The notes beneath the pieces are model-generated. The model ran no database searches and had not been told where the DNA came from. It worked only from the letters and a program-made list of their open reading frames with translations. This document shows, in pieces, positions 26,021-60,612 of a DNA stretch of 64,000 bases; the stretch's first letter is position 1; every line of letters begins with the position of its first letter. A program made the translations under genes and the position numbers. The DNA comes from Candidatus Falkowbacteria bacterium (GTDB lineage: Bacteria; Patescibacteriota; Patescibacteriia; Patescibacteriales; GWE2-39-37). Location: contig JAAXUA010000001.1 of NCBI GenBank assembly GCA_013336275.1, forward strand, positions 206,167 to 270,166, written 5' to 3'.

Positions 26021-27394
26021 ATGAATGATGAAATAAATCACTGGGAAATTGAGGTGCGCAATCGGCAGCATTACGTTTCAACGAACCCCGAATTGGCCCA
26101 CTCTTCCGCCTACTTCAACCTGTCGACCTTCGAAAAGGGAATCGGCATTTCCAACATTGCCGACAACCGGATTACCGCATACTGGCCCTTGGATTTTTCC
26201 GACTACTGCATAGAAGAACACCTCTCTGACGGCCGCATCGCCCGCCTCGACAACCATACCGGCTCTTCAGCCGCAGATGGAGATTTCATCGTGCTTCAGG
26301 TGATATCTGCTGCCGGCACCCCAGCAATCATCAATTGGCTCAAGCAAGGATTGGCAGTCGAGTCCTCGGAGGTCGGTTACGCCAGCAGCAAAGAGCCTGG
26401 ACTTATTACTAGCCAATTTTTCAGCTTGCCAGCCAGGGTCGCCCAACAACTGGCCTCTTTACCGGCACCGACCGGCTTTAGCGCAATCATAGCCGAAACT
26501 TCCTATTCCGCCGAAGCCATCTCACCGGCAAAACTCAAAGGCAACACCCACACGCTGCTTCTGCGGACACAGGAAGCATTTGAAAATGACCTCCTCGGCT
26601 TAAAGGCTGAAATATTGGCCAAATACGGCGCTTTGAATTATTTTCCGCCGAAGCGATTCGGCCGACGGCACAACTCACACCTTTTGGGCAAGCTCGTACT
26701 GTCGGAAAACTTCGAAGAAGCGATCAAGGACTTCCTTTGCCAGACCAGCCCGACCGAAGAACTTCTTCTTACACGATTGCGCGAAGTCGCCCTGTCTGGC
26801 TTTCCGAACTTCGAGAAGCTCGACAAGATCTTTTCCGTCCTTCCGGTAACTTTCTCCCACGAACTGGCTGTGATAAGATATCTCCATGACCACCCGGCCG
26901 ATTACGCCGGCGCCATCATCCAGATCAAGCATTTGGCCAAGCAATGGCTTTTCGCTTATGGCGCATATATTTTCAACACGAATCTGGGCGAAGCCTCGGG
27001 CATCAAGGGCATCATCAACGAACAACTGCCCTGGACCTTCAGCCCCGATACGGCGGACAAGCTCGTGTACCGGCGCTGTTTCGAACGCGACAACATCTTT
27101 AACGGTTTTGAAGTCAATTTCATCAAGGAACTTATTCCTGAACGCAAACAATTGATTCCTGGCAGGATTTTTCCCAAGGCCCTGACTTGCCGCGCCGTCG
27201 GCAAGGGCGTGGCCTTGTCGTTTTTTTTAGAAGGGACTATGCCAGCTGAAACCGTAGTGGCGAATCTTTTAAATTTCACTTCCGTTACGCCTCGCCCAGA
27301 CTGGGTCGACGTTTCCAGATTCGACGCTAAGAAGATGCTTGATCAAGGAAGCGTCGCCGATATAGCTTTAAGACTTTCACCTCAAAATGCCTAA
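26021..27394 (+). CDS. divergent TruD-family pseudouridine synthase-like protein
   Basis: LNYFPPKRFGRRHN resembles the TruD NYFGxQRFG motif. YGAYIFNTNLG resembles the S-x-x-FN motif. I could not see a clear GxKD catalytic-Asp motif. Confidence 0.5.
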   Translation: MNDEINHWEIEVRNRQHYVSTNPELAHSSAYFNLSTFEKGIGISNIADNRITAYWPLDFSDYCIEEHLSDGRIARLDNHTGSSAADGDFIVLQVISAAGTPAIINWLKQGLAVESSEVGYASSKEPGLITSQFFSLPARVAQQLASLPAPTGFSAIIAETSYSAEAISPAKLKGNTHTLLLRTQEAFENDLLGLKAEILAKYGALNYFPPKRFGRRHNSHLLGKLVLSENFEEAIKDFLCQTSPTEELLLTRLREVALSGFPNFEKLDKIFSVLPVTFSHELAVIRYLHDHPADYAGAIIQIKHLAKQWLFAYGAYIFNTNLGEASGIKGIINEQLPWTFSPDTADKLVYRRCFERDNIFNGFEVNFIKELIPERKQLIPGRIFPKALTCRAVGKGVALSFFLEGTMPAETVVANLLNFTSVTPRPDWVDVSRFDAKKMLDQGSVADIALRLSPQNA

Positions 27395-29912
27395 GATAAG
27401 TTACAAGCCGCTGCCGAAATCGCAGCACGTCATCAACCTCAAAGACGAACTGGCTAAACGCCAGGATGCTTCTGCGAGCTCGAACTCCAACAAGCAGTGG
27501 AGCCGAGTCATGGCTAAGCCGGTGCAGATTTTTGACAGGCCGGCGGAACCGATCAAGTCAGAAGCCAGGCCAGCCAAAGAACGCAAGGTACCAAAGGAAC
27601 CCAAAGCAGAGAAGGCCATAAGGGAGCCGATAAAACTCGACCTCCGTCTTGAATTGAATTTGTGGCAGCACTTCTACAGTTTCTGCGTCATCCTAGGCAA
27701 ATCTATTTTCTCTATCGGCAAACTCTACTTCGCCCCAGTCTCTGCGGTCAAAAAAATATTCGCCGAAAAACCGAAGGCCGACCCGATCAAATCCGAGACA
27801 AGGGCAGACAAGAAAGAAACCAAGAAGCGGGTGAAAGTCGAACCGGCACCCGCCTTGCCCGCTCCAGCCCCTTCGCCGATCATCAGGATATCGCCCGTGC
27901 GCTCAGCTTTCGCTTTCACTGTCATCCTTCTGCTGCTCGCTGCTTTGCTCAAGGGCACGGTATTATTTGCTGCCGTCTCACAAGCTAAGGATAGGGTTGT
28001 ACGCAATGTGGCTGACAGCCTTTCAAGCCTGGCCGGCGCCAGCAAAGCCGCGGCTGACAAAGATTTTCTCAATGCTACTCGCTCGCTCTCCGAGGCCAAA
28101 CAAGGCTTCGTTGGGGCTCAACAGGAACTCTCATCCATCAATGACCTGCTTTTGAAGCTGGCCGGCGCAGCACCGAGCCCCGAACTCAAGCTGGCCGGCA
28201 ACAGCAAGGCTATACTCGCAGCTGCCGAGTCGGCATCGTCATTGGGGCAGAACCTGACCCAAGCCATCTCTTATTTCACCGCTGATTTTGCCAGCACGAC
28301 AGACCTCGCCGCCAAACTAGAAAATATCAATGTCCAAGCCAGGGCGGCGGCCGACAACTCACGTCTCTTAAACCAGGAACTGAACAGCATCGACATGCAA
28401 GCCATCCCCGACGGACTGCATAACCAATTCATTTTCATCCGCAATAAATCCAACGACCTCTACAAGAGCCTCGAGGAATTATCTAATCTTTCCGATGCCG
28501 CCAACCTTTTTCTCGGCCTCAACCAAGATCGCCGCTACCTCCTGATTTTTCAGAACAACGCCGAGGCCCGAGCGACCGGCGGCTTCTTCGGCAGCTTCGC
28601 CTTGATTGATTTCAGCAAAGGCAAAATCAAAAAAATCGAGACACCGGGCGGAGGCAGTTACGACACCGACGCTGGCCTGCGCGAACGCATCATCGCGCCA
28701 GAGCCGTTGCAGCTGGTCAACGCCCAGTGGCACTTCTGGGATTCTAACTGGTGGCCGGACTGGCCGACCTCGGCCAAGAAAATCGCCTGGTTCTATGAAA
28801 AATCAGCCGGCCCCTCGGTCGATGGCGTGATCAGCTTCACTCCGACCGTCATGGAGGAGCTCCTGCGAGCAGTAGGACCAATCGATATGACAGCGCAGTA
28901 CGGCGTCACCATCGATGCCGACAACTTTTGGGACGTGACCCAGGAATTTTCCGAACAAAAGCCGGACGTGACCAAGACGCCCAAGAAAATCATCGGCGAC
29001 CTGATGAACCAGCTCTTGGCCGAAATCCCAAAAAGGATGAACAAGGAGATCTCTCTCAAATTATTAGCATTAGCTGACAAGGAGCTGTCCGAACGGCAGA
29101 TCCTGCTTTATTTTTTCAATGACGAACTGGAGAACACGGTCCAGCGCTTCGGCTGGGATGGCCGGGTGAAGGCAACCAACTGGGATTACCTCTCCGTCAT
29201 CAATTCCAATATCGCCGGCGGCAAGAGCGATCGTCGCATCAGGCAGACTTTCACTCACAATGCTGTGCTGCAGCCCGATGGCACGATCATCGATGAAGTT
29301 AAGATCAAGCGCGAACACACTGCCGGCAACAGGGAACCTTTCGCCGGCGTCCGCAACGTCGACTGGATGCGTGTTTACGTACCGCACGGCAGCCAGCTTC
29401 TCGAGGCAACGGGATTCGAGACGCCATCGAGCACCTTCTTCGACAAGCCGGATGACACCTGGGAACACGACCCGAGTTTGGCTGCCGAAGAGCAAGCCCA
29501 GGTCGACCCCATGAGCGGCACCAAGATATATGACGAAGCAGGCAAGACGGTCTTTGCCAACTGGAGCATGATCGATCCGGGGCAGACCGAAGAAATCACC
29601 CTGCGCTACCGCCTGCCGTTCACTATCAAGAATGCAACAAAAGAACAAACCTGGCAGGACGAATTAGATAACTTCATGGGCTGGACTCAGGCCAATTATT
29701 ATCCCTATTCATTGCTGGTCCAGAAGCAGTCCGGCTCGCTTAACACCACCCTGATCAGCAAATTCGAGATACAGTCACCGACCGCAGGCCGGCCAAAGCT
29801 TAAGGTCGCACAGACCCAACCGAGATCGAGCGGTCAGACCACGATCGGCTGGAGCGGCGAGCAATCCCTCGACACTGATTATTACCAAGCAGCTTTTTTA
29901 ACTGATTATTAA
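27387..29912 (+). CDS. DUF4012 domain membrane protein (paralog of 9869..11881)
   Basis: 841 aa with NNAEARATGGFFGSFA and WHFWDSNWWPDWP. The Lys/Pro-rich N-terminal region has a duplicated (E/D)PIKSE(A/T)R motif flanking a hydrophobic segment. Confidence 0.75.
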   Translation: MPKISYKPLPKSQHVINLKDELAKRQDASASSNSNKQWSRVMAKPVQIFDRPAEPIKSEARPAKERKVPKEPKAEKAIREPIKLDLRLELNLWQHFYSFCVILGKSIFSIGKLYFAPVSAVKKIFAEKPKADPIKSETRADKKETKKRVKVEPAPALPAPAPSPIIRISPVRSAFAFTVILLLLAALLKGTVLFAAVSQAKDRVVRNVADSLSSLAGASKAAADKDFLNATRSLSEAKQGFVGAQQELSSINDLLLKLAGAAPSPELKLAGNSKAILAAAESASSLGQNLTQAISYFTADFASTTDLAAKLENINVQARAAADNSRLLNQELNSIDMQAIPDGLHNQFIFIRNKSNDLYKSLEELSNLSDAANLFLGLNQDRRYLLIFQNNAEARATGGFFGSFALIDFSKGKIKKIETPGGGSYDTDAGLRERIIAPEPLQLVNAQWHFWDSNWWPDWPTSAKKIAWFYEKSAGPSVDGVISFTPTVMEELLRAVGPIDMTAQYGVTIDADNFWDVTQEFSEQKPDVTKTPKKIIGDLMNQLLAEIPKRMNKEISLKLLALADKELSERQILLYFFNDELENTVQRFGWDGRVKATNWDYLSVINSNIAGGKSDRRIRQTFTHNAVLQPDGTIIDEVKIKREHTAGNREPFAGVRNVDWMRVYVPHGSQLLEATGFETPSSTFFDKPDDTWEHDPSLAAEEQAQVDPMSGTKIYDEAGKTVFANWSMIDPGQTEEITLRYRLPFTIKNATKEQTWQDELDNFMGWTQANYYPYSLLVQKQSGSLNTTLISKFEIQSPTAGRPKLKVAQTQPRSSGQTTIGWSGEQSLDTDYYQAAFLTDY

Positions 29913-29924
29913 ACAACGTTTGAA

Positions 29925-30000
29925 GCAAATCTTTTGAGAATTGATTTTATCGCGCATACGTACTCGTCTAAGCAGGAAAATTAATTCTCAAAAGATTTGC
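29925..30000. repeat. foldback element copy 1: 24-bp stem (one G.T) around a conserved 28-nt loop
   Basis: Arms gcaaatcttttgagaattgatttt / aaaattaattctcaaaagatttgc. Loop atcGCGCATACGTACTCGTCTAAGCAGG. The core is shared with 37560-37598. Confidence 0.75.
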
Positions 30001-33799: not shown

Positions 33800-33824
33800 A
33801 AAGGGCCCAGTTCAATCTGGGCCC
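33797..33824 (-). terminator. hairpin plus U-tract terminator for the minus-strand gene (convergent with tgt)
   Basis: gggcccag-ttcaat-ctgggccc. The A5 on the + strand gives a U5 for the minus-strand transcript. Confidence 0.55.
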
Positions 33825-33856
33825 CGAGATACTGACAATAGAAGTACCGTTGACAA

Positions 33857-34204
33857 TCACTGTTCCGCCAACTCGCACAACCTGTTTGCTCCTGCAAATG
33901 CAACGCGATAGAAGCAGCGAGACATGCCAGGAACACCAGACCAACATTTCTCGATAAGTCTGGAATCCTCTGCGAGTTGCATGTCAGAACCAGAAACTGA
34001 ACTTCTGGCTATGGCGTCGAATCCGCTTACACGGTTGCCGACTGATACTCTTTTTGCAGTTTGAATGAGCGCGATCACTGCTCGGTCGTTAGCAGCCATA
34101 ATTTGCTCCACCGTTTCTAGGGATATTTTTGCAACAGCACTAAGTGCAATCGCCGAAATTTCCCACTCCTCATACGGAACTCCACCTGATTTTTGGGGAA
34201 TCAT
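33857..34204 (-). CDS. hypothetical protein (115 aa) with a strong SD
   Basis: ccAGGAGGtgcttATG supports a start at 34204 (MIPQKSGGVPYEEW...). No motif recognised. Confidence 0.55.
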   Translation of the reverse strand: MIPQKSGGVPYEEWEISAIALSAVAKISLETVEQIMAANDRAVIALIQTAKRVSVGNRVSGFDAIARSSVSGSDMQLAEDSRLIEKCWSGVPGMSRCFYRVAFAGANRLCELAEQ

Positions 34205-34373
34205 AAGCACCTCCTGGTACGAATGGTTGGGTAATATCTGATTAAGCAAGTTATCATTAATTATTTACATAGTCAATAATCAAAGCCTGTAAGTCCTGTA
34301 TTTATCAACACCCGATATTTTTTCACAAAAAATACACCAGACTTATACCATTAAACACGCTGTTTATCGGGCT

Positions 34374-37238: not shown

Positions 37239-37421
37239 ATGCCACTAAGTCCATACTGCTCAGGCAATCAAGTTGCCACACCTAAACCGAGCTGCACCTG
37301 TCATCTTTATTCCAAATCAGATGAGTTGATCCACCATACCTGCCCGGTGTGCGGACCGACTCACAACGGCGGCACTATGCGCCAATCTTCCAACGAAAGG
37401 GGGTGTTCTACTTGTTCATAA
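37239..37421 (+). CDS. Cys-rich 60-aa protein (7 Cys; CxC, CPVC and CSTC motifs)
   Basis: AGGAGGgaaagATG SD lies 21 nt after the mnmA stop. A terminator follows downstream. Sequence: MPLSPYCSGNQVATPKPSCTCHLYSKSDELIHHTCPVCGPTHNGGTMRQSSNERGCSTCS. Confidence 0.5.
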   Translation: MPLSPYCSGNQVATPKPSCTCHLYSKSDELIHHTCPVCGPTHNGGTMRQSSNERGCSTCS

Positions 37422-37472
37422 CCAAATGGATGCTGCGTGGACCCACGCACTGTAAAGAAGGCTGCTGAACCG

Positions 37473-37518
37473 GGGCCGGCAATCTACCGCAAGGATGATT
37501 GACCGGCCCTCTTTTTTT
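37473..37518 (+). terminator. rho-independent terminator
   Basis: gggccgg...(23-nt loop)...ccggccc followed by tcttttttt. Confidence 0.6.
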
Positions 37519-37541: not shown

Positions 37542-37615
37542 GCCCAGCCTCGGTATTAAATTTTAATGCGCATACGTACTCGTCTAAGCAGGAAAATTTA
37601 ATACCGAGGCTGGGC
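37542..37615. repeat. foldback element copy 2: 23-bp perfect stem around the conserved 28-nt loop
   Basis: Arms gcccagcctcggtattaaatttt / aaaatttaataccgaggctgggc. Loop aatGCGCATACGTACTCGTCTAAGCAGG. Followed by gtttt. Confidence 0.75.
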
Positions 37616-37640: not shown

Positions 37641-37668
37641 TTGAAAAAAATGCGAAAATCAGTATAAT
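37641..37668 (+). promoter_or_regulatory. alaS promoter TTGAAA-16-TATAAT
   Basis: ttgaaa(37641)-16 nt-tataat(37663). Implies an SD-less leader of about 23 nt. Confidence 0.6.
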
Positions 37669-43986: not shown

Positions 43987-44019
43987 ACGAACAGTATACA
44001 CCTCTTTGTATATACCAAC

Positions 44020-44055
44020 AAATAACCTCCGACACGCTCGGAGGTTATTTGTTTT
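44020..44055 (+). terminator. rho-independent terminator ending the ribosomal-protein operon
   Basis: 13-bp stem aaataacctccga / tcggaggttattt, 5-nt loop, then gtttt. Confidence 0.88.
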
Positions 44056-46678: not shown

Positions 46679-47383
46679 ATGATTTCGATAATCATTCCTG
46701 CCTACAACCGCGCCGACAAGATCGGCCAGACGCTCGATTCGATCATTGCCCAAAGCGAGAAAGATGTCGAGGTTATCGTCGTCGACGACGGGTCGAAAGA
46801 CGGCACCCAAGACGTGCTCGCCTCTTACGATGGCAGATTCAAGCAGGCACAGATACCTTATCGCTTCTCGAAGCAGGCTAACGCCGGCGCGCCAGCAGCC
46901 CGCAACCGCGGCTTTGCAGCCAGCACGGGCGAGTTTCTGATCTTCTGCGATGCCGACTCCGAGCTGGTTCCGGACGCACTGGCGACGATGAAGAAAACCC
47001 TGATCGACAATCCCGCTGCCAGTTATGCCTATTCTTCATTCTACTGGGGCAGCAAGCTCTTCAAGGTCGGACCATTCTCACCCGAACGGCTGAAGCAAGG
47101 CCCGTTCATCCACACCATGGCCCTCATCCGCCGTTCAGATTTTCCGCAATCGGGCTGGGACGAAGCGGTGAAGAAGCTTCAGGACTGGGACTTGTGGCTG
47201 ACCATGCTCGAGGCAGGGAAGCAAGGCGTCTTTATCGACAGACCGCTTTTCCGCATCTGGCCGGGCGGCACTATCTCTAGCTGGCTGCCTTCATTCGCTT
47301 ACAAACTTTTGCCCTTTCTGCCACAGGTCAAGAAATACAAAGCCGCAGTTGAGCTGATTAAGGGGAAACACAAATTATCATGA
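46679..47383 (+). CDS. glycosyltransferase family 2
   Basis: ISIIIPAYNRADKI...VIVVDDGSKDGT...CDADS. Confidence 0.85.
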   Translation: MISIIIPAYNRADKIGQTLDSIIAQSEKDVEVIVVDDGSKDGTQDVLASYDGRFKQAQIPYRFSKQANAGAPAARNRGFAASTGEFLIFCDADSELVPDALATMKKTLIDNPAASYAYSSFYWGSKLFKVGPFSPERLKQGPFIHTMALIRRSDFPQSGWDEAVKKLQDWDLWLTMLEAGKQGVFIDRPLFRIWPGGTISSWLPSFAYKLLPFLPQVKKYKAAVELIKGKHKLS

Positions 47384-48201
47384 GCAAGAACCGAAGAACC
47401 TTTTCGGGTTTGAAAAAATACTGGATCGTCTGCCAGAATGGCATGCAGAAAGTCATGGTCTACCGCCTCAATTTCTTCGCTTGGTTCTTCGTCGAAGGAT
47501 TGGGCTTTTTGGTCATGGCCTATATTTGGCTTTCCATCTACAAGCAGGGCAACCAAGTGGGAAGCTACACCCTGGCAACGCTTTTATGCTATTTCGCTAT
47601 CAGCCGAGTGCTCGGCATGGTCGTCACCTCTGACGACATGGCCCGCCAAATCAATGAGGACATCAGCCAAGGGCGGCTGGTGAATTTCCTCCTGAAGCCG
47701 ATCAGCTACTCTAAGAAATTATTTTTCCAGAATACGGGCGAGATCATCATTGCCGCGATTTACACTTTGCCCGTGGCCATTCCCGTAGCTTATTACTTCC
47801 GCGACCAGCTCGCCTTCACCGCAACGCGGATTCTCCTATTCTTAATCGCTATCATGATCGCATGTTTCATGGATTTTTTCTTCAACTACCTTATCGGGAC
47901 CCTGACCTTTTACTCAGAGAACATCTTCGGCATCATCTTCCTGTCTTGGACGATTACCGGAATCTTTTCCGGAAGGGTCGTACCGATCGACCTGCTACCA
48001 GGATTCCTGCAGCACCTCGCCGACTTCCTGCCATTCAAATACGTCCTGTTCATACCGTTATCGATAATTTCCGGCCGGATCGACCCGTCAGCGGCAGTCG
48101 TCGAGCTAGGCTTCGGACTGGCTTGGGTAATCGCTCTTTGGTACGCCGGGCGGCTGATCTTTAATTCAGGCCTAAAACGTTACGAAGGCTATGGCATCTA
48201 G
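47380..48201 (+). CDS. ABC-2 (DUF990-like) transporter permease, copy 1
   Basis: 273 aa with 6 TM. ATGA overlap with GT2. C-terminal KRYEGYGI. Confidence 0.72.
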   Translation: MSKNRRTFSGLKKYWIVCQNGMQKVMVYRLNFFAWFFVEGLGFLVMAYIWLSIYKQGNQVGSYTLATLLCYFAISRVLGMVVTSDDMARQINEDISQGRLVNFLLKPISYSKKLFFQNTGEIIIAAIYTLPVAIPVAYYFRDQLAFTATRILLFLIAIMIACFMDFFFNYLIGTLTFYSENIFGIIFLSWTITGIFSGRVVPIDLLPGFLQHLADFLPFKYVLFIPLSIISGRIDPSAAVVELGFGLAWVIALWYAGRLIFNSGLKRYEGYGI

Positions 48202-48988
48202 ATATATAAAAATCTATCTCATCCGCATGCGCGCTTCAGTCATGACTAGAATGGCTTATCCTTTGAATTTCTTCATCCTGACGATTTCAGTCATCGCCCA
48301 GGGCCTGCTTTCGATCATCTTCATCAAGGTTATCTACAAATACGCGAGCAATATCTCCGGCTGGAACTATGACCAAGCCATGTTAGTGCTAGCTTCATTC
48401 TTGATCGTAGAGGGGATGATGTGGACGACCAATGCCTATATGGCCGGCATTCGCAAAAATGTCCTGATGGGCTCCTTTGACCGTTTTCTGATACAGCCGC
48501 TCAATACGCTTTTTTCAGTCTCGACCTGGCGCGTCGACCCCGAAGACCTGATGCGTTTGGTCATAGCCGGCTACATCTTCGCCAGCACCATCGGCCATCT
48601 GCACTTGCCGGCCGCCGAGCTTCTGACACGCGGCTGGGTCTACGCATTGCTGATTCTCGATGGCTATATCGTCTTTTACTCTTTGTCTTTGGCTATCAAT
48701 TCCTTATACTTCTGGTACTCGGAAATCAGCAGCATCAACATCATGTTCGAAAATTTCCTGCGCATGGCCCAATATCCGACCGACATCCTTTACGGCAAAT
48801 TCATCAAGATTTTCTTTTCGACGATTTTTCCGATCGCCTTCATGGCCACCGTTCCCGCCAGAGCCTTGGCCTTCGGTGCGGATTACCTGATGCTTCTGGC
48901 GGCGACCGCAATCGCTTTGGCGTTTTTCTTTTCGGCCAGAGCCATTTTCAACGCAGGGTTAAGAGCCTATTCCAGCGCTTCAAGCTAA
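48191..48988 (+). CDS. ABC-2 (DUF990-like) transporter permease, copy 2
   Basis: 265 aa with 6 TM. 11-nt overlap with copy 1. Confidence 0.72.
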   Translation: MASRYIKIYLIRMRASVMTRMAYPLNFFILTISVIAQGLLSIIFIKVIYKYASNISGWNYDQAMLVLASFLIVEGMMWTTNAYMAGIRKNVLMGSFDRFLIQPLNTLFSVSTWRVDPEDLMRLVIAGYIFASTIGHLHLPAAELLTRGWVYALLILDGYIVFYSLSLAINSLYFWYSEISSINIMFENFLRMAQYPTDILYGKFIKIFFSTIFPIAFMATVPARALAFGADYLMLLAATAIALAFFFSARAIFNAGLRAYSSASS

Positions 48989-48989
48989 T

Positions 48990-49787
48990 ATGAAAAAATA
49001 CGCTGCCATCATCAAGACTTCCTGGCTCCGGCAATTCGCCTACCGCACCGACATCCTGGGCTACCGCCTAGCCAATCTTTTCGACATCCTGTTCCAGATG
49101 GCGATTTGGTATGCGGTCTTCCAGACAAGCAGCGTAGTCAACGGCTACACGTTTCCGGAGATGATGACCTATGTCATCATCGGCTGGCTCTTTTCCTTTC
49201 TCACTGCCAATTTCGGTTTGGAGACGGTGGTCAACCGTGATATCCGCGACGGCACCCTGAATAATTTCCTGACCAAGCCAATCAGCTATTTGAAATATAT
49301 GGTCGTCCTGTCGATCGGCAGGGCATCGCTCGCCCTGTTTTCCGGCGTGGTGGTCCAGGCCGCCTTGATCATCTCATTCCACGGCTTCATCTCAGCGCCA
49401 CCCAGTTTGGCCAAAATCCTGTTGATCATCCTGATAGTCTTCATCGGTTATTTCATCAGGCTTTTCCTCTCCATCCTGATCGGCCTTTTGTCCTTCTGGG
49501 TTACCGAGAATGCCGGGCTTAACAGCTTTTTCAACGTCCTGATCCGCTTCCTGTCCGGCGGCTACGCGCCGCTGAGCATCCTACCCACCGCTTTCTACCA
49601 GCTGAGCCTGGCTTTCCCGTTCGCCTATATCATCTTCTTTCCGGCGCAGCTCTATCTCGACAAAGCTACCACCGCCCAGGGCATACGAGGGCTGGCCATC
49701 GAGCTGGCCTGGCTGGCGGCGCTTTATATATTGATCAAGATTACCTGGAAGCGCGGCCTTCGCAACTACGAAGGCACCGGAGCATAA
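48990..49787 (+). CDS. ABC-2 (DUF990-like) transporter permease, copy 3
   Basis: 265 aa. Motifs GTLNNFLTKPISYLKYM, FWVTENAG, RNYEGTGA. Confidence 0.75.
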   Translation: MKKYAAIIKTSWLRQFAYRTDILGYRLANLFDILFQMAIWYAVFQTSSVVNGYTFPEMMTYVIIGWLFSFLTANFGLETVVNRDIRDGTLNNFLTKPISYLKYMVVLSIGRASLALFSGVVVQAALIISFHGFISAPPSLAKILLIILIVFIGYFIRLFLSILIGLLSFWVTENAGLNSFFNVLIRFLSGGYAPLSILPTAFYQLSLAFPFAYIIFFPAQLYLDKATTAQGIRGLAIELAWLAALYILIKITWKRGLRNYEGTGA

Positions 49788-49791
49788 CCAT

Positions 49792-50589
49792 ATGAAAAAA
49801 TACATCACCATACTCAAGAACGAGTTCCAGCGCCATCTGGCATACCGCGCCAACATTGCCAGCTATAGTCTCGGCCATATTTTCGAAGTAGTTTCGCAGG
49901 TGGTCGTCTGGACCGTCATTTTCCAGAACGCCGATATCATCAAGGGCTATACCTACGACGAGATGATCACTTACGTCGTCATCGGCTGGTTCATCCTCTT
50001 CGCCACCTCGAACTACGGCTTCGAAGAAAAGATCGCCAAGGATATCCATCAGGGCACGCTGTCTAATTTCATCACCAAGCCGATCAGCTATCTCCGCTAT
50101 ATGGCCTCGGTTTCGATCGGCCGCATCGTCTTCGCTTTCGTGGTAGTGGTCGGCATCGAGACCGTCCTGATCTGGCTGATGCGCGATCACATCATCTTCA
50201 ACCGCGATCCGGCTGTATTGCTGTTACTTTTGTGCATGGTGGGCGCCGCCTATTTCATCCGGCTTTTCTTTTCGGTAATCATCGGCTTGTTCGCTTTCTG
50301 GATCGTCGAGATTTCCGGAACCTATTTTTCCTTGAACATCATCAGTAAATTCCTCTCCGGCGCCTACTTTCCCATGGGCCTCTTGCCAGCCGCCTTTGTC
50401 AGAGTCAGCATGTTCTTTCCGTTCGTCTACACCTTCTTCATCCCGATACAGCTCTACCTAGGCAAAATAACCCTTCTGGACGGCCTTTACGGCCTAGGGG
50501 CTGAGCTGATTTGGCTGGCACTGCTTTACGGCGGAATCAAGGCGGTCTGGCACTACGGCCTGAAGCGATATGAAGGAGTTGGCATTTGA
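49792..50589 (+). CDS. ABC-2 (DUF990-like) transporter permease, copy 4 (close paralog of copy 3)
   Basis: 265 aa. Motifs GTLSNFITKPISYLRYM, FWIVEISG, KRYEGVGI. Confidence 0.75.
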   Translation: MKKYITILKNEFQRHLAYRANIASYSLGHIFEVVSQVVVWTVIFQNADIIKGYTYDEMITYVVIGWFILFATSNYGFEEKIAKDIHQGTLSNFITKPISYLRYMASVSIGRIVFAFVVVVGIETVLIWLMRDHIIFNRDPAVLLLLLCMVGAAYFIRLFFSVIIGLFAFWIVEISGTYFSLNIISKFLSGAYFPMGLLPAAFVRVSMFFPFVYTFFIPIQLYLGKITLLDGLYGLGAELIWLALLYGGIKAVWHYGLKRYEGVGI

Positions 50590-59139: not shown

Positions 59140-59151
59140 CCACTTTTCAAT

Positions 59152-59184
59152 AAAAAAACCGCGCTGACAAAGCGCGGTTTTTTT
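59152..59184. terminator. rho-independent terminator (bidirectional shape)
   Basis: aaaaaaaccgcgct-gacaa-agcgcggttttttt. Confidence 0.88.
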
Positions 59185-59646
59185 ATTGAAACTGCGACTT
59201 CCCTGTGCTAAAATTAATAAAAGAGCAGGGCAATGGGGCCTCGGTCCCGATATTTATAAAGAGCCAGGGAAGTACTAGTTCCCTCCTAATCCTCAAAAAA
59301 ATGGAAGCGGCATTCAAGTTCCTATTCGCCTTCGGCATATTCATCTTCTGTTTGGTAGTTATCGGCTTCTTTATCTTGTTGATAAAATTCCTGCTGCTGT
59401 TTACCGACCACATCCAGATCATGGGCGTGATAATGACCAGCAGCTAGTATTCGGACACGAACTCTTGATAATAACGATGGCACTTATCCTGTGAACAGGC
59501 CGTCAAGCACAAACTGTCAAAACCCACACGGACAAGGTGTGGTGTTATATCATACACCCTTCATTTCGATTAATCTACATTACGCGAAGTGACATATGGG
59601 TGGTATAACTATACCCAAGGTTAGCTAAAAAATATCGCCCTACCCC

Positions 59647-60612
59647 ATGAGCAAGTCCCAAAAACCTATAATCGACTACCTCTACGACTTCCTCGACTAC
59701 CTCGAGATAGAAAAAGGTCTGGCCTCTGAGTCGCAAAAAAATTATTCACGATTCTTGAAGAAATTTTTCGACTGGCTGGAAGACACTGACTTGGCCGAAC
59801 TCAAGCCAGGCCAGCTGACTGCGGATCATGTCTGGAAGTACCGGCTCTACCTCTCTCGTCACCAAAGCGAACGGAGCAGGGCGAACTTGAAGAAGAGCAC
59901 ACAGAACTACTACCTCATCGCCCTACGCAACCTATTGGCTTACTTCGTGGAAAAGGACATCACTTCCCTGCCGCCTGATAAAATAAAACTGGCCAAAGAG
60001 AAATCGGACAAACAGGTGACCTTTTTAAAAATCGACCAGATCGAAAAGTTGCTCCTAGCTCCGGACACGACCTCGGTCAGCGGCCTCCGTGATCGGGCCA
60101 TCCTTGAGACTCTTTTCTCGACCGGACTGCGGGTGGCCGAGCTGACCCGCCTTGACCGCGACCAGCTGAAAATCAAGCCGGGGAGCAACACCTTTTTAGA
60201 AATCAGCATTACAGGCAAAGGCAGCAAGGTCCGCACCGTCTATTTCTCTGAACGGACAGTGCAGTGGCTAGCCAAATATCTGGCCAAGCGCTCGGACATC
60301 GACCCTGCCCTGTTCATCAACTTCACCACGGCCCAGCAGAAGAGCGAGTCGCGCCGCCTGACCGTCCGCTCGATCGAAAACATCGTCAAGAAATATATCA
60401 AGATTTCCGGACTGCCGATAATGTCCAGCCCGCATACTCTCCGCCACTCATACGCTACTGACCTTTTATCCCAAGGCGTCGACCTGAGGCTGGTCCAAGA
60501 GTTCCTTGGCCACGCCAATATCGCCACTACCCAGATCTATACCCACGTGACCAACAAGCAGCTCCGCGACGTGCACCAGAAATTCCACTCTGGCAAGAAT
60601 CTCAAGAACTAG
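59647..60612 (+). CDS. XerC/XerD-family tyrosine site-specific recombinase
   Basis: 321 aa. SAM-like N-domain. RDRAILETLFSTGLRVAEL, HTLRHSYATDLL, LGHANIATTQIYTHV (R-H-R-Y catalytic set). Confidence 0.9.
   Translation: MSKSQKPIIDYLYDFLDYLEIEKGLASESQKNYSRFLKKFFDWLEDTDLAELKPGQLTADHVWKYRLYLSRHQSERSRANLKKSTQNYYLIALRNLLAYFVEKDITSLPPDKIKLAKEKSDKQVTFLKIDQIEKLLLAPDTTSVSGLRDRAILETLFSTGLRVAELTRLDRDQLKIKPGSNTFLEISITGKGSKVRTVYFSERTVQWLAKYLAKRSDIDPALFINFTTAQQKSESRRLTVRSIENIVKKYIKISGLPIMSSPHTLRHSYATDLLSQGVDLRLVQEFLGHANIATTQIYTHVTNKQLRDVHQKFHSGKNLKN

Follow-up and report, generated by a model that had tools for sequence, protein, structure and literature searches.

REP, BIME and REPIN repeats are short intergenic hairpins that lie after stop codons in either orientation, sometimes in tandem, and that are gained and lost while their pairing is preserved; in REPs, the stem is conserved, with GTAG or CGTC at its foot, and the loop is short and variable. 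Their genomes hold a cognate RAYT (Y1 transposase) gene, typically with REPs on its flanks. REP sequences and TnpA-REP are described in PMC3333891 and PMC8266576. MITEs and attC sites are likewise small, non-coding palindromic insertions, both with conserved ends and a variable middle, and the arms of attC sites covary too. Among RNAs, the stem-loop tigRNAs of CPR bacteria have variable, always palindromic stems with conservation only beside the loop, and sometimes a secondary hairpin in mid-loop (bioRxiv 10.64898/2026.09.09.750476; PMC12045711). TigRNAs are defined by a pair of variable spacers of 8-12 nt, each lying between box C (CUU) and box D (UG), and by arrays beside or within a tas gene. 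Cuckoo RNAs combine conserved loops with variable stems (PMC4615179). They are built of at least two short hairpins, with an anti-SD loop, and have their own promoter and terminator. In yeast Rnt1p AGNN hairpins and in pre-miRNA, the loop gives identity on a sequence-free helix of fixed length. We know of no bacterial enzyme of this loop-recognised, ruler-type RNase III kind and, to our knowledge, few regulatory RNAs or repeat families are known in CPR/Patescibacteria, which have tiny genomes.

Here we describe a new family of loop-conserved, stem-covarying hairpins that is inserted and lost like mobile DNA and is constrained in place. To judge from the sequences of its copies, it is a lineage-restricted interspersed family of a genus-level clade of Candidatus Falkowbacteria. 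By analogy, its behaviour resembles that of REP/REPIN repeats, with which it shares the placement, the free orientation, the occasional tandem, the turnover and the preserved pairing named above, and its conservation pattern resembles that of RNAs in which the loop is the working part. In contrast to REPs, the loop is conserved and the near-perfect stem of 21-26 bp is free; the stem varies at nearly every position, and no conserved tetranucleotide was found at its foot across the copies. This pattern is also the opposite of that seen in MITEs and attC sites, a contrast already drawn in an earlier, sequence-only reading of this DNA. Unlike MITEs, the element has neither a terminal inverted repeat consensus nor a consistent target duplication, and its arms are the variable part. 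Unlike attC sites, it lacks R/L boxes and a conserved stem base, its stems are essentially perfect, and it sits among housekeeping neighbours with no integron.

The most striking structural parallel is with tigRNAs, which come from the same phylum and share the variable palindromic stem, conservation beside the loop and a hairpin in the centre of the loop. On this comparison, we would nevertheless not class the element with them, as their defining features were not found: the loop is invariant, without variable spacers or symmetric CUU/UG boxes, and the elements are dispersed singly, two in tandem at most, with no tas gene adjacent. With cuckoo RNAs the likeness lies in a conserved single-stranded loop motif that is functional, covarying stems and multiple copies in unrelated intergenic regions, whereas the element is one long hairpin with a 28-nt structured loop and no recognisable promoter. 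The likeness to Rnt1p substrates and pre-miRNA, in loop identity and fixed-length helix, is one of analogy, since those systems are eukaryotic.

Results

Two hairpins with one apical module

The window, by which we mean the whole 64,000-nt stretch of DNA analysed, is unremarkable chromosomal DNA (CTP synthase, ribosomal proteins, rpoA, aminoacyl-tRNA synthetases, glycosyltransferases) with nearly all genes on the + strand. Its DUF4012 protein matches, at 100% identity, a protein annotated from Candidatus Falkowbacteria on a 338-kb contig. The window holds two copies of the element, with these features in and around them:

27387-29912, + strand: DUF4012 gene (841 aa); copy 1 starts 12 nt past the last base of its stop codon (29912)
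29925-29948, + strand: copy 1 (site S1a), 5' arm of a 24-bp stem, with the inner TTTT conserved in the family
29949-29976, + strand: copy 1, apical module of 28 nt, with the 25-nt core at 29952-29976
29977-30000, + strand: copy 1, 3' arm, with the inner AAAA conserved in the family and one G.T with the 5' arm
37473-37518, + strand: terminator-like hairpin (GGGCCGG..CCGGCCC plus T-run), read from the sequence, ~24 nt upstream of copy 2
37542-37564, + strand: copy 2 (site S2), 5' arm of a perfect 23-bp stem
37565-37592, + strand: copy 2, apical module of 28 nt, AAT plus the identical 25-nt core
37593-37615, + strand: copy 2, 3' arm, followed by GTTTTAAAT
37641-37668, + strand: conserved alaS promoter-like site, TTGAAA-16-TATAAT (11/12), ~25 nt downstream of copy 2

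The arms of copy 1 indeed pair as first read, over 24 consecutive positions including one G.T (5' G29943 with 3' T29982), and enclose the 28-nt loop atcGCGCATACGTACTCGTCTAAGCAGG. The reported identity of 37/39 between the inner 39-nt modules of the two copies was reproduced. For copy 2, the claimed perfect complementarity of the stem held, but the claim that it has the same total length as that of copy 1 did not (23 bp, not 24). Searching the window with the 25-nt core gave exactly two matches, 29952-29976 and 37568-37592, both on the + strand; shuffled sequences gave none in 100, even with 3 mismatches allowed, so that the chance expectation is none. Fold energies on the + strand were -35.8 kcal/mol for copy 1 (z -6.8) and -48.9 kcal/mol for copy 2 (z -8.3), values unmatched by any shuffle. 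A covariance-model search for divergent copies in the window, run with filters off, returned only these two and ordinary terminators.

Seventeen elements at nine genomic sites

Further copies were sought in three ways: by scanning public genomes and metagenomes for the core, by walking along homologues of the proteins that flank elements, and with a covariance model for which the first 13 copies served as input. The sequence-only reading had taken the foldback for a member of a repeat family; more copies were found, every one with paired flanks. In the window and related contigs together, the family has 17 elements, which occupy 9 genomic sites and come from about four related species of Falkowbacteria and one more distant organism:

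S1a: 3' of the DUF4012 gene; window, L017/L002, L011
S1b: 11 nt downstream of S1a; L017/L002, L011 (decayed), L012
S2: upstream of alaS; window, L007/L018, L017
S3: 3' of tgt; L004, L017
S4: between a CYTH gene and dnaK; L001/L021, L022
S5: between a holin-like gene and a NAGPA-domain gene; L003
S6: 3' of trpS/tyrS; L005
S7: 5' of lgt; L010
S8: 3' of a NUDIX gene; L008, a different organism (42% G+C contig, 10-bp stem)

Element density is low, at 1 per 5-30 kb in the DNA examined, and the 20-kb stretches from more distant Falkowbacteria (L013-L015, L020 and L023) contained no element. One metagenome match, L009, was rejected as probably due to chance; it has no hairpin and lies in G+C-rich surroundings.

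A structured loop on a variable stem

The whole element measures ~70-80 nt and is intergenic at all 9 sites. Stem length ranges from 21 to 26 bp and loop length from 26 to 29 nt across the family, with L008 as the exception in both (10 bp and 33 nt). Except again in L008, the stem invariably ends at the loop in four or five U-A pairs; the foot of the stem is G+C-rich. Within the loop, an invariant G-C/C-G clamp is followed by an internal loop, in which GCAU faces C(C)UAA, and then by a mini-helix of 3 bp (ACG/CGU), which closes a tetraloop that varies between UACU, UACC, UACA, UAAU and UAUU. In copy 1, the clamp pairs 29952-29953 with 29972-29973, the internal loop is GCAU opposite CUAA, and the mini-helix pairs 29958-29960 with 29965-29967 around the tetraloop UACU (29961-29964). 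The loop segments AUCGCGCAU and CUAAGCAGG, 9 nt each, are invariant across copies.

The outer arms of the two window copies had been called unrelated. This did not survive the family alignment, in which a consensus GGCTTTTGGAAAT..GTTTTT is recognisable throughout, indicating that the whole hairpin is the unit that duplicated. Arms of different sites are linked in the alignment by a network of partial similarities. When the arms were considered as guides, their matches in ~300 kb of related DNA were only to themselves, orthologues and paralogues, which gives no hint that they guide anything.

Selection on pairing and on the loop

Watson-Crick pairs make up 345 of the 356 stem pairs in the 16 intact copies; the 11 others are eight G.T or T.G, one A.C and two further mismatches. 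In a model-fitted alignment of 14 of the copies (A4), 93.9% of cells pair, compared to 36-47% when partners are slid by 1-3 columns, and changes on both sides are found in 21 of 23 stem pairs. Double-change cells number 110 versus 30 ± 5 in shuffles, and not one of the observed values was attained in 500 shuffles. Stem covariation, which the sequence-only reading had put forward as a check, is overwhelming in this alignment and is also seen among orthologous copies.

Comparison of orthologous copies is the stronger test, being independent of how paralogues are related. At four-fold codon sites of the flanking genes, identity between the window species and the L017 species is 0.44-0.69 (~55%), compared to ~94% between the loops of orthologous copies. 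By site, the orthologs compare as follows:

S1a: loop 28/28; three compensated double substitutions in the stem
S2: loop 27/29; ~8/23 positions per arm (~35%) replaced in each of three species, all paired
S1b: loop 25/27; stems 42/42 identical between L012 and L017
S3: loop 27/29; four Watson-Crick to Watson-Crick double changes, and two further positions mismatched in one ortholog
S4: loop about 25/28; stems ~55% identical, with pairing kept

One S1a pair records a complete two-step compensation path, with C-G in the window, U.G in L011 and U-A in L017. Both loop changes at S1b amount to one compensated A-U to G-C switch in the mini-helix. The same switch bears on the hexamer TACGTA in the loop, previously proposed as a kissing or dimer site: an A-to-G change, present in L008 and in the S1b copies of L017 and L011, destroys TACGTA and is compensated by T to C across the mini-helix (ACG/CGT to GCG/CGC). 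Since the mini-helix is restored where TACGTA is lost, the helix, and not the hexamer, is the selected feature. The 42/42 identity of the S1b stems in L012 and L017 is unexplained by a constraint on pairing only.

Loop conservation so far above neutral between orthologs calls for more than recent common descent. On these alignments, the loop of copies resident since the species split is under strong purifying selection, and the stems drift at a roughly neutral rate under a pairing constraint. Both the covariation and the compensated orthologous changes back the earlier proposal that a single strand is selected for its fold, with the apex conserved and the stems compensated.

A wobble bias towards the top strand

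Wobbles favour the top strand, that is, the strand reading GCGCAUACGUAC, by 8 to 1: read on this strand, the non-Watson-Crick pairs include 8 G.T/T.G versus 1 A.C (one-sided p = 0.02), or 7 versus 1 when the pair shared at S1b is scored once, both of them small numbers. L022 alone holds three wobbles, which are clustered; its top strand forms an unbroken 24-bp helix (-46.7 kcal/mol), versus an internal loop in its bottom strand (-38 kcal/mol). An identical G.T is retained by the S1b orthologs L012 and L017, which argues against arm-to-arm DNA homogenisation, as this would erase wobbles. Because G.T is the best-tolerated mismatch in DNA hairpins too, the wobble bias tells which strand folds, and not whether it is RNA or DNA.

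Position and orientation

At 7 of the 9 sites, the element lies 11-25 nt past a stop codon and between co-directional genes. Relative to its flanking genes, whose calls are backed by Pfam, it is sense at five sites and antisense to both neighbours at four (S4, S5, S6 and S8), and its orientation is stable among orthologues. On a 772-kb MAG contig (CAYUCS010000001.1), the S1-S3 copies and the S4 copy, 120 kb apart, point in opposite directions with genes on the same strand, so that there is no fixed relation to the lagging strand. A link between orientation and replication through GC skew, considered when all elements seemed to lie on the C-rich strand, was rejected: four-fold sites show that codon composition dominates the skew.

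With a terminator-like hairpin upstream and a promoter-like site downstream, copy 2 is placed between terminator and promoter. The hairpin at 37473-37518 is conserved in L007, L018 and L017; our consensus scan omits it because its 23-nt loop exceeds the limit of the scan. S7 is placed like S2, and the position of these two sites in terminator-to-promoter spacers indicates that the element is not simply part of the flanking mRNAs. No consensus promoter was found upstream of copy 1, and the -10-like hexamers that precede other copies show no conservation. Given the antisense sites and the terminator-promoter spacers, an RNA from the top strand would need its own promoter.

Insertion, gain and loss

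At the DUF4012 site, the three outgroups L013, L014 and L015 (DUF4012 protein identity 74%, 53% and 48%) have only a 14-24-nt spacer from stop to next start, without a palindrome. The empty sites place the insertion of the hairpins, with short flanks, in the ancestor of the clade, and they contradict the earlier suggestion that a 39-nt module inserts into palindromes already in place. Target-site duplications were inconsistent, with ATTAA at S1, TTAAAT at S2, ATTG at S6 and none at other sites.

Occupancy of S1 differs between species: the window species has a only, L017 and L011 have a and b, and L012 has b only, with an apparent remnant of the 3' arm of a. The S1b copy of L011 is decaying, with four mismatches. 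At S3, two species have a copy and the window has none; the S3 spacer of L019 holds a different long hairpin, and L019 also lacks the S2 copy. This distribution indicates that copies are gained, are lost and decay, and that not every copy is needed.

Searches for known families and partner genes

Rfam 15 gave no match to the whole window at gathering score. At permissive E-values, only miRNA-precursor models appeared, at 12-26 bits versus thresholds of 50-330, reflecting shape alone. The 38-nt apical module likewise had no Rfam match, and L008/L009 had only spurious miRNA-shaped ones. ARAGORN found no tRNA or tmRNA. In viral contigs, two scans with the full core pattern (19-20 specified bases) were empty, and a scan with a shortened pattern gave 7 chance matches without hairpins; BLAST against phages and plasmids returned nothing meaningful. 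Literature searches found no paper for the core string, and keyword searches yielded no such element in Patescibacteria.

Pfam scanning of the window ORFs found no transposase, RAYT, Rep or Nop/Tas gene, and none of 10 ORFs flanking six related loci encoded a Nop-domain protein. Binding by the Xer recombinase of the window had been suggested as well. The Xer-like integrase, the only tyrosine recombinase in the window, lies at 59647-60612, ~30 kb away, and the loop contains no dif-like dyad, which speaks against such a link.

Discussion

The reading that we favour, at a probability of roughly 0.5, is that the folding molecule is the top strand, most likely as RNA, and that it offers the apical module to a partner on a helix of fixed length. 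The element would act as a folded single strand reading GCGCAUACGUACUCGUCUAAGCAG, most likely as RNA, and its 21-26-bp helix, constrained only to pair, would serve as a pedestal or ruler. This pedestal would display the conserved apical module of 26-29 nt to a sequence-specific partner, probably a protein, the parts of the module being the U4-5/A4-5 closing pairs, the 2-bp G-C clamp, the internal loop, the 3-bp mini-helix and a UANN tetraloop. The whole hairpin would have been duplicated and inserted, in either orientation, into short spacers between genes, most often immediately 3' of a stop codon, and retained copies would stay under purifying selection in place. We infer three of these points: the molecule is RNA and not ssDNA, its partner is a protein, and the length of the stem serves as a ruler.

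A DNA hairpin is the main alternative, possible though on balance unlikely. Here the structure would form in ssDNA or as a cruciform, with the loop as recognition or nicking site of a transposase-like enzyme (REP/RAYT-like, or HUH/recombinase-like) encoded elsewhere, and the elements would be non-autonomous mobile DNA, moved and kept up by that enzyme. Such an origin would suit the behaviour of a dispersed repeat, seen in presence or absence at orthologous sites, a tandem pair, decay and insertion into tight spacers, and it would suit the two sites in probably untranscribed terminator-promoter spacers and the occurrence in either orientation relative to genes and transcription units. Recognition of hairpin loop sequences is established for HUH enzymes, and compensatory evolution has also been reported for REPINs. 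However, selection for mobility alone is insufficient to explain resident loops kept over ~45% neutral divergence, and the window encodes no transposase, RAYT or Rep. The conserved foot tetranucleotide and the consistent target duplication that would fit such an enzyme are both missing from the copies. In addition, the three G.T wobbles clustered in L022 would cost a DNA helix more stability than an RNA helix, and the opposite-facing copies 120 kb apart, beside same-strand genes, have no fixed relation to the lagging-strand template.

It is doubtful that the element is a purely cis-acting mRNA hairpin (an intercistronic RNase III site, a 3'-exonuclease barrier or a terminator) whose loop is shared by recent descent. 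Loop conservation between orthologs is far above neutral, the loop is reversed in orientation at 4 of the 9 sites, and, at the three wobbles of the antisense strand, the sense mRNA of L022 would have A.C/C.A mismatches. These points weigh against the usual position shortly past a stop codon between co-directional genes, and against the match between a ~23-bp stem and the smallest RNase III substrate, an A-form RNA helix of two turns, both of which such a hairpin would explain. As to termination, a U-tract (GTTTT in the DNA, GUUUU in a transcript) follows only the S2 copies; most copies have no T-run, and copy 1 has none 3' of its stem, as the sequence-only reading stated. Its view that this is not a standard terminator stands, given the 28-nt loop, the T and A runs inside the stem and the lack of any terminator-like site at copy 1. 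The genuine terminators of the window, like the ordinary ones of this genome, differ from the element, consisting of A-run, G+C stem and T-run (e.g. 59145-59191).

Very unlikely, in our assessment, is a solitary stem-loop RNA of the tigRNA or box C/D kind, with invariant guide segments and bound by a Nop-domain (Tas-like) protein encoded elsewhere. The single-stranded segments are only 9 nt each and invariant, in place of variable 8-12-nt spacers; symmetric CUU/UG boxes are lacking, although CUU is present in many 5' arms and the architecture parallels that of CPR stem-loop tigRNAs. The elements are also singly dispersed, not arrayed beside a tas gene, and the window encodes no Nop-domain protein. 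Finally, a 39-nt module inserting at the apex of existing palindromes, or two coincidental palindromes, is hardly credible: the outer arms of the two window copies may look unrelated, but stems share ancestry across the family, empty orthologous sites have no palindrome, the core occurs twice versus none by chance, and the flanks are paired in 16/16 intact copies.

Going further than the favoured reading of a folded top-strand molecule, the hairpins might be bound by a dedicated protein that reads the loop and acts a measured distance away along the sequence-free ~23-bp helix, and the elements might be dispersed, mobile 'solo' genes for a trans-acting RNA in CPR, transcribed independently of their neighbours. 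We give this extension a slim chance. If true, bacteria would have a counterpart to loop-specified RNase III, Dicer-type or Tas-type RNPs, and CPR bacteria a new class of mobile, structured, trans-acting RNA.

The family joins two properties, as a non-coding element that is strongly constrained and yet has copies gained and lost between close relatives. Its conservation pattern reverses that of REPs, MITEs and attC sites and points to a partner for which a structured loop of 28 nt, carried by a generic helix, is what is read. Such a partner could be a new RNA- or ssDNA-hairpin-binding system, and might relate to the stem-loop TIGR-Tas RNPs of the same phylum. Even if the element is merely selfish, it would still be an interspersed hairpin repeat family for which we found no prior description in the Falkowbacteria group, and its orthologous copies with compensated stems, such as the series from C-G through U.G to U-A, offer clean material on how hairpins evolve.

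Hairpins and genes around the element

In this lineage, ordinary bidirectional terminators take the form of unusually long, perfect palindromes (16–21 bp) whose pairing continues past the A-run and the T-run; those listed here include one from L010, the related locus with an element before lgt.

Terminators and other features of the window and of L010
Window 33803-33826, short hairpin GGCCCAG..CTGGGCC directly after tgt
Window 33857-34249, minus strand, 130-aa ORF without a Pfam match
Window 44017-44053, long palindromic bidirectional terminator
Window 47380-50589, four paralogous ABC-2 permease genes (PF06182) in a row, then an ABC ATPase gene
Window 59145-59191, long palindromic bidirectional terminator
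Window 59647-60612, Xer-like tyrosine recombinase (Phage_integrase and N-terminal SAM-like domain)
L010 2572-2627, long palindromic bidirectional terminator

Copy 1 of the element is about 30 kb, and copy 2 about 22 kb, away from the gene for the Xer-like recombinase, which showed no sequence relation to the element loop.

Between tgt and the CAP-domain gene, the window contains about 500 nt of extra sequence missing from its relatives, within which the 130-aa ORF and the short hairpin after tgt lie. In the same spacer, where other species carry the element S3, a related species (L019 2002-2074) has a long hairpin unlike the element, with perfect 25-bp arms, a 24-nt loop and a small palindrome, ATTCCCGCGCAGGCGGGAAT, inside each arm. 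Its layout is similar to that of a REPIN, that is, two REP-like units in inverted orientation; the window lacks this hairpin.

Two further features occupy the interval between mnmA and alaS (window 37239-37421 and 37437-37518; L017 20524-20670 and 20705-20800). The first is a small conserved Cys-rich ORF (..ELIHHTC.V.GPTHNGG..), and the second is a conserved stretch with ..HCKEGC* at its end and a terminator-like hairpin after it. In L017 and in the related locus L018, this second stretch can be read as an ORF of 16 aa that has a strong ribosome-binding site.

L017 belongs, together with L001, L002 and L021, to the 772-kb MAG contig CAYUCS010000001.1, whose record is titled 'uncultured Gammaproteobacteria'. 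This contig is syntenic with the Falkowbacteria window. Identity is 82% for the DUF4012 protein and, in comparison with DnaK from the window's genome, 96% for DnaK; the title appears to be mistaken.

Stem identity and strand sense

At S1b, the element site directly downstream of S1a (the site that copy 1 occupies in the window), the stem is identical at 42 of 42 positions between L012 (7272-7340) and L017 (12624-12692), two species that share about 57% identity at four-fold sites. This contrasts with the freely drifting stems at other sites, and a second function overlapping the stem or a recent exchange between lineages are possible explanations.

Five of the eight wobble pairs fall in copies antisense to their flanking genes, namely L022 1819-1892 (between the CYTH gene and dnaK) and L008 572-624 (after a NUDIX gene). 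Sense mRNA over these two copies would have A.C mismatches at the wobble positions, and the wobbles could reflect selection against hairpin formation in the operon's own transcript.
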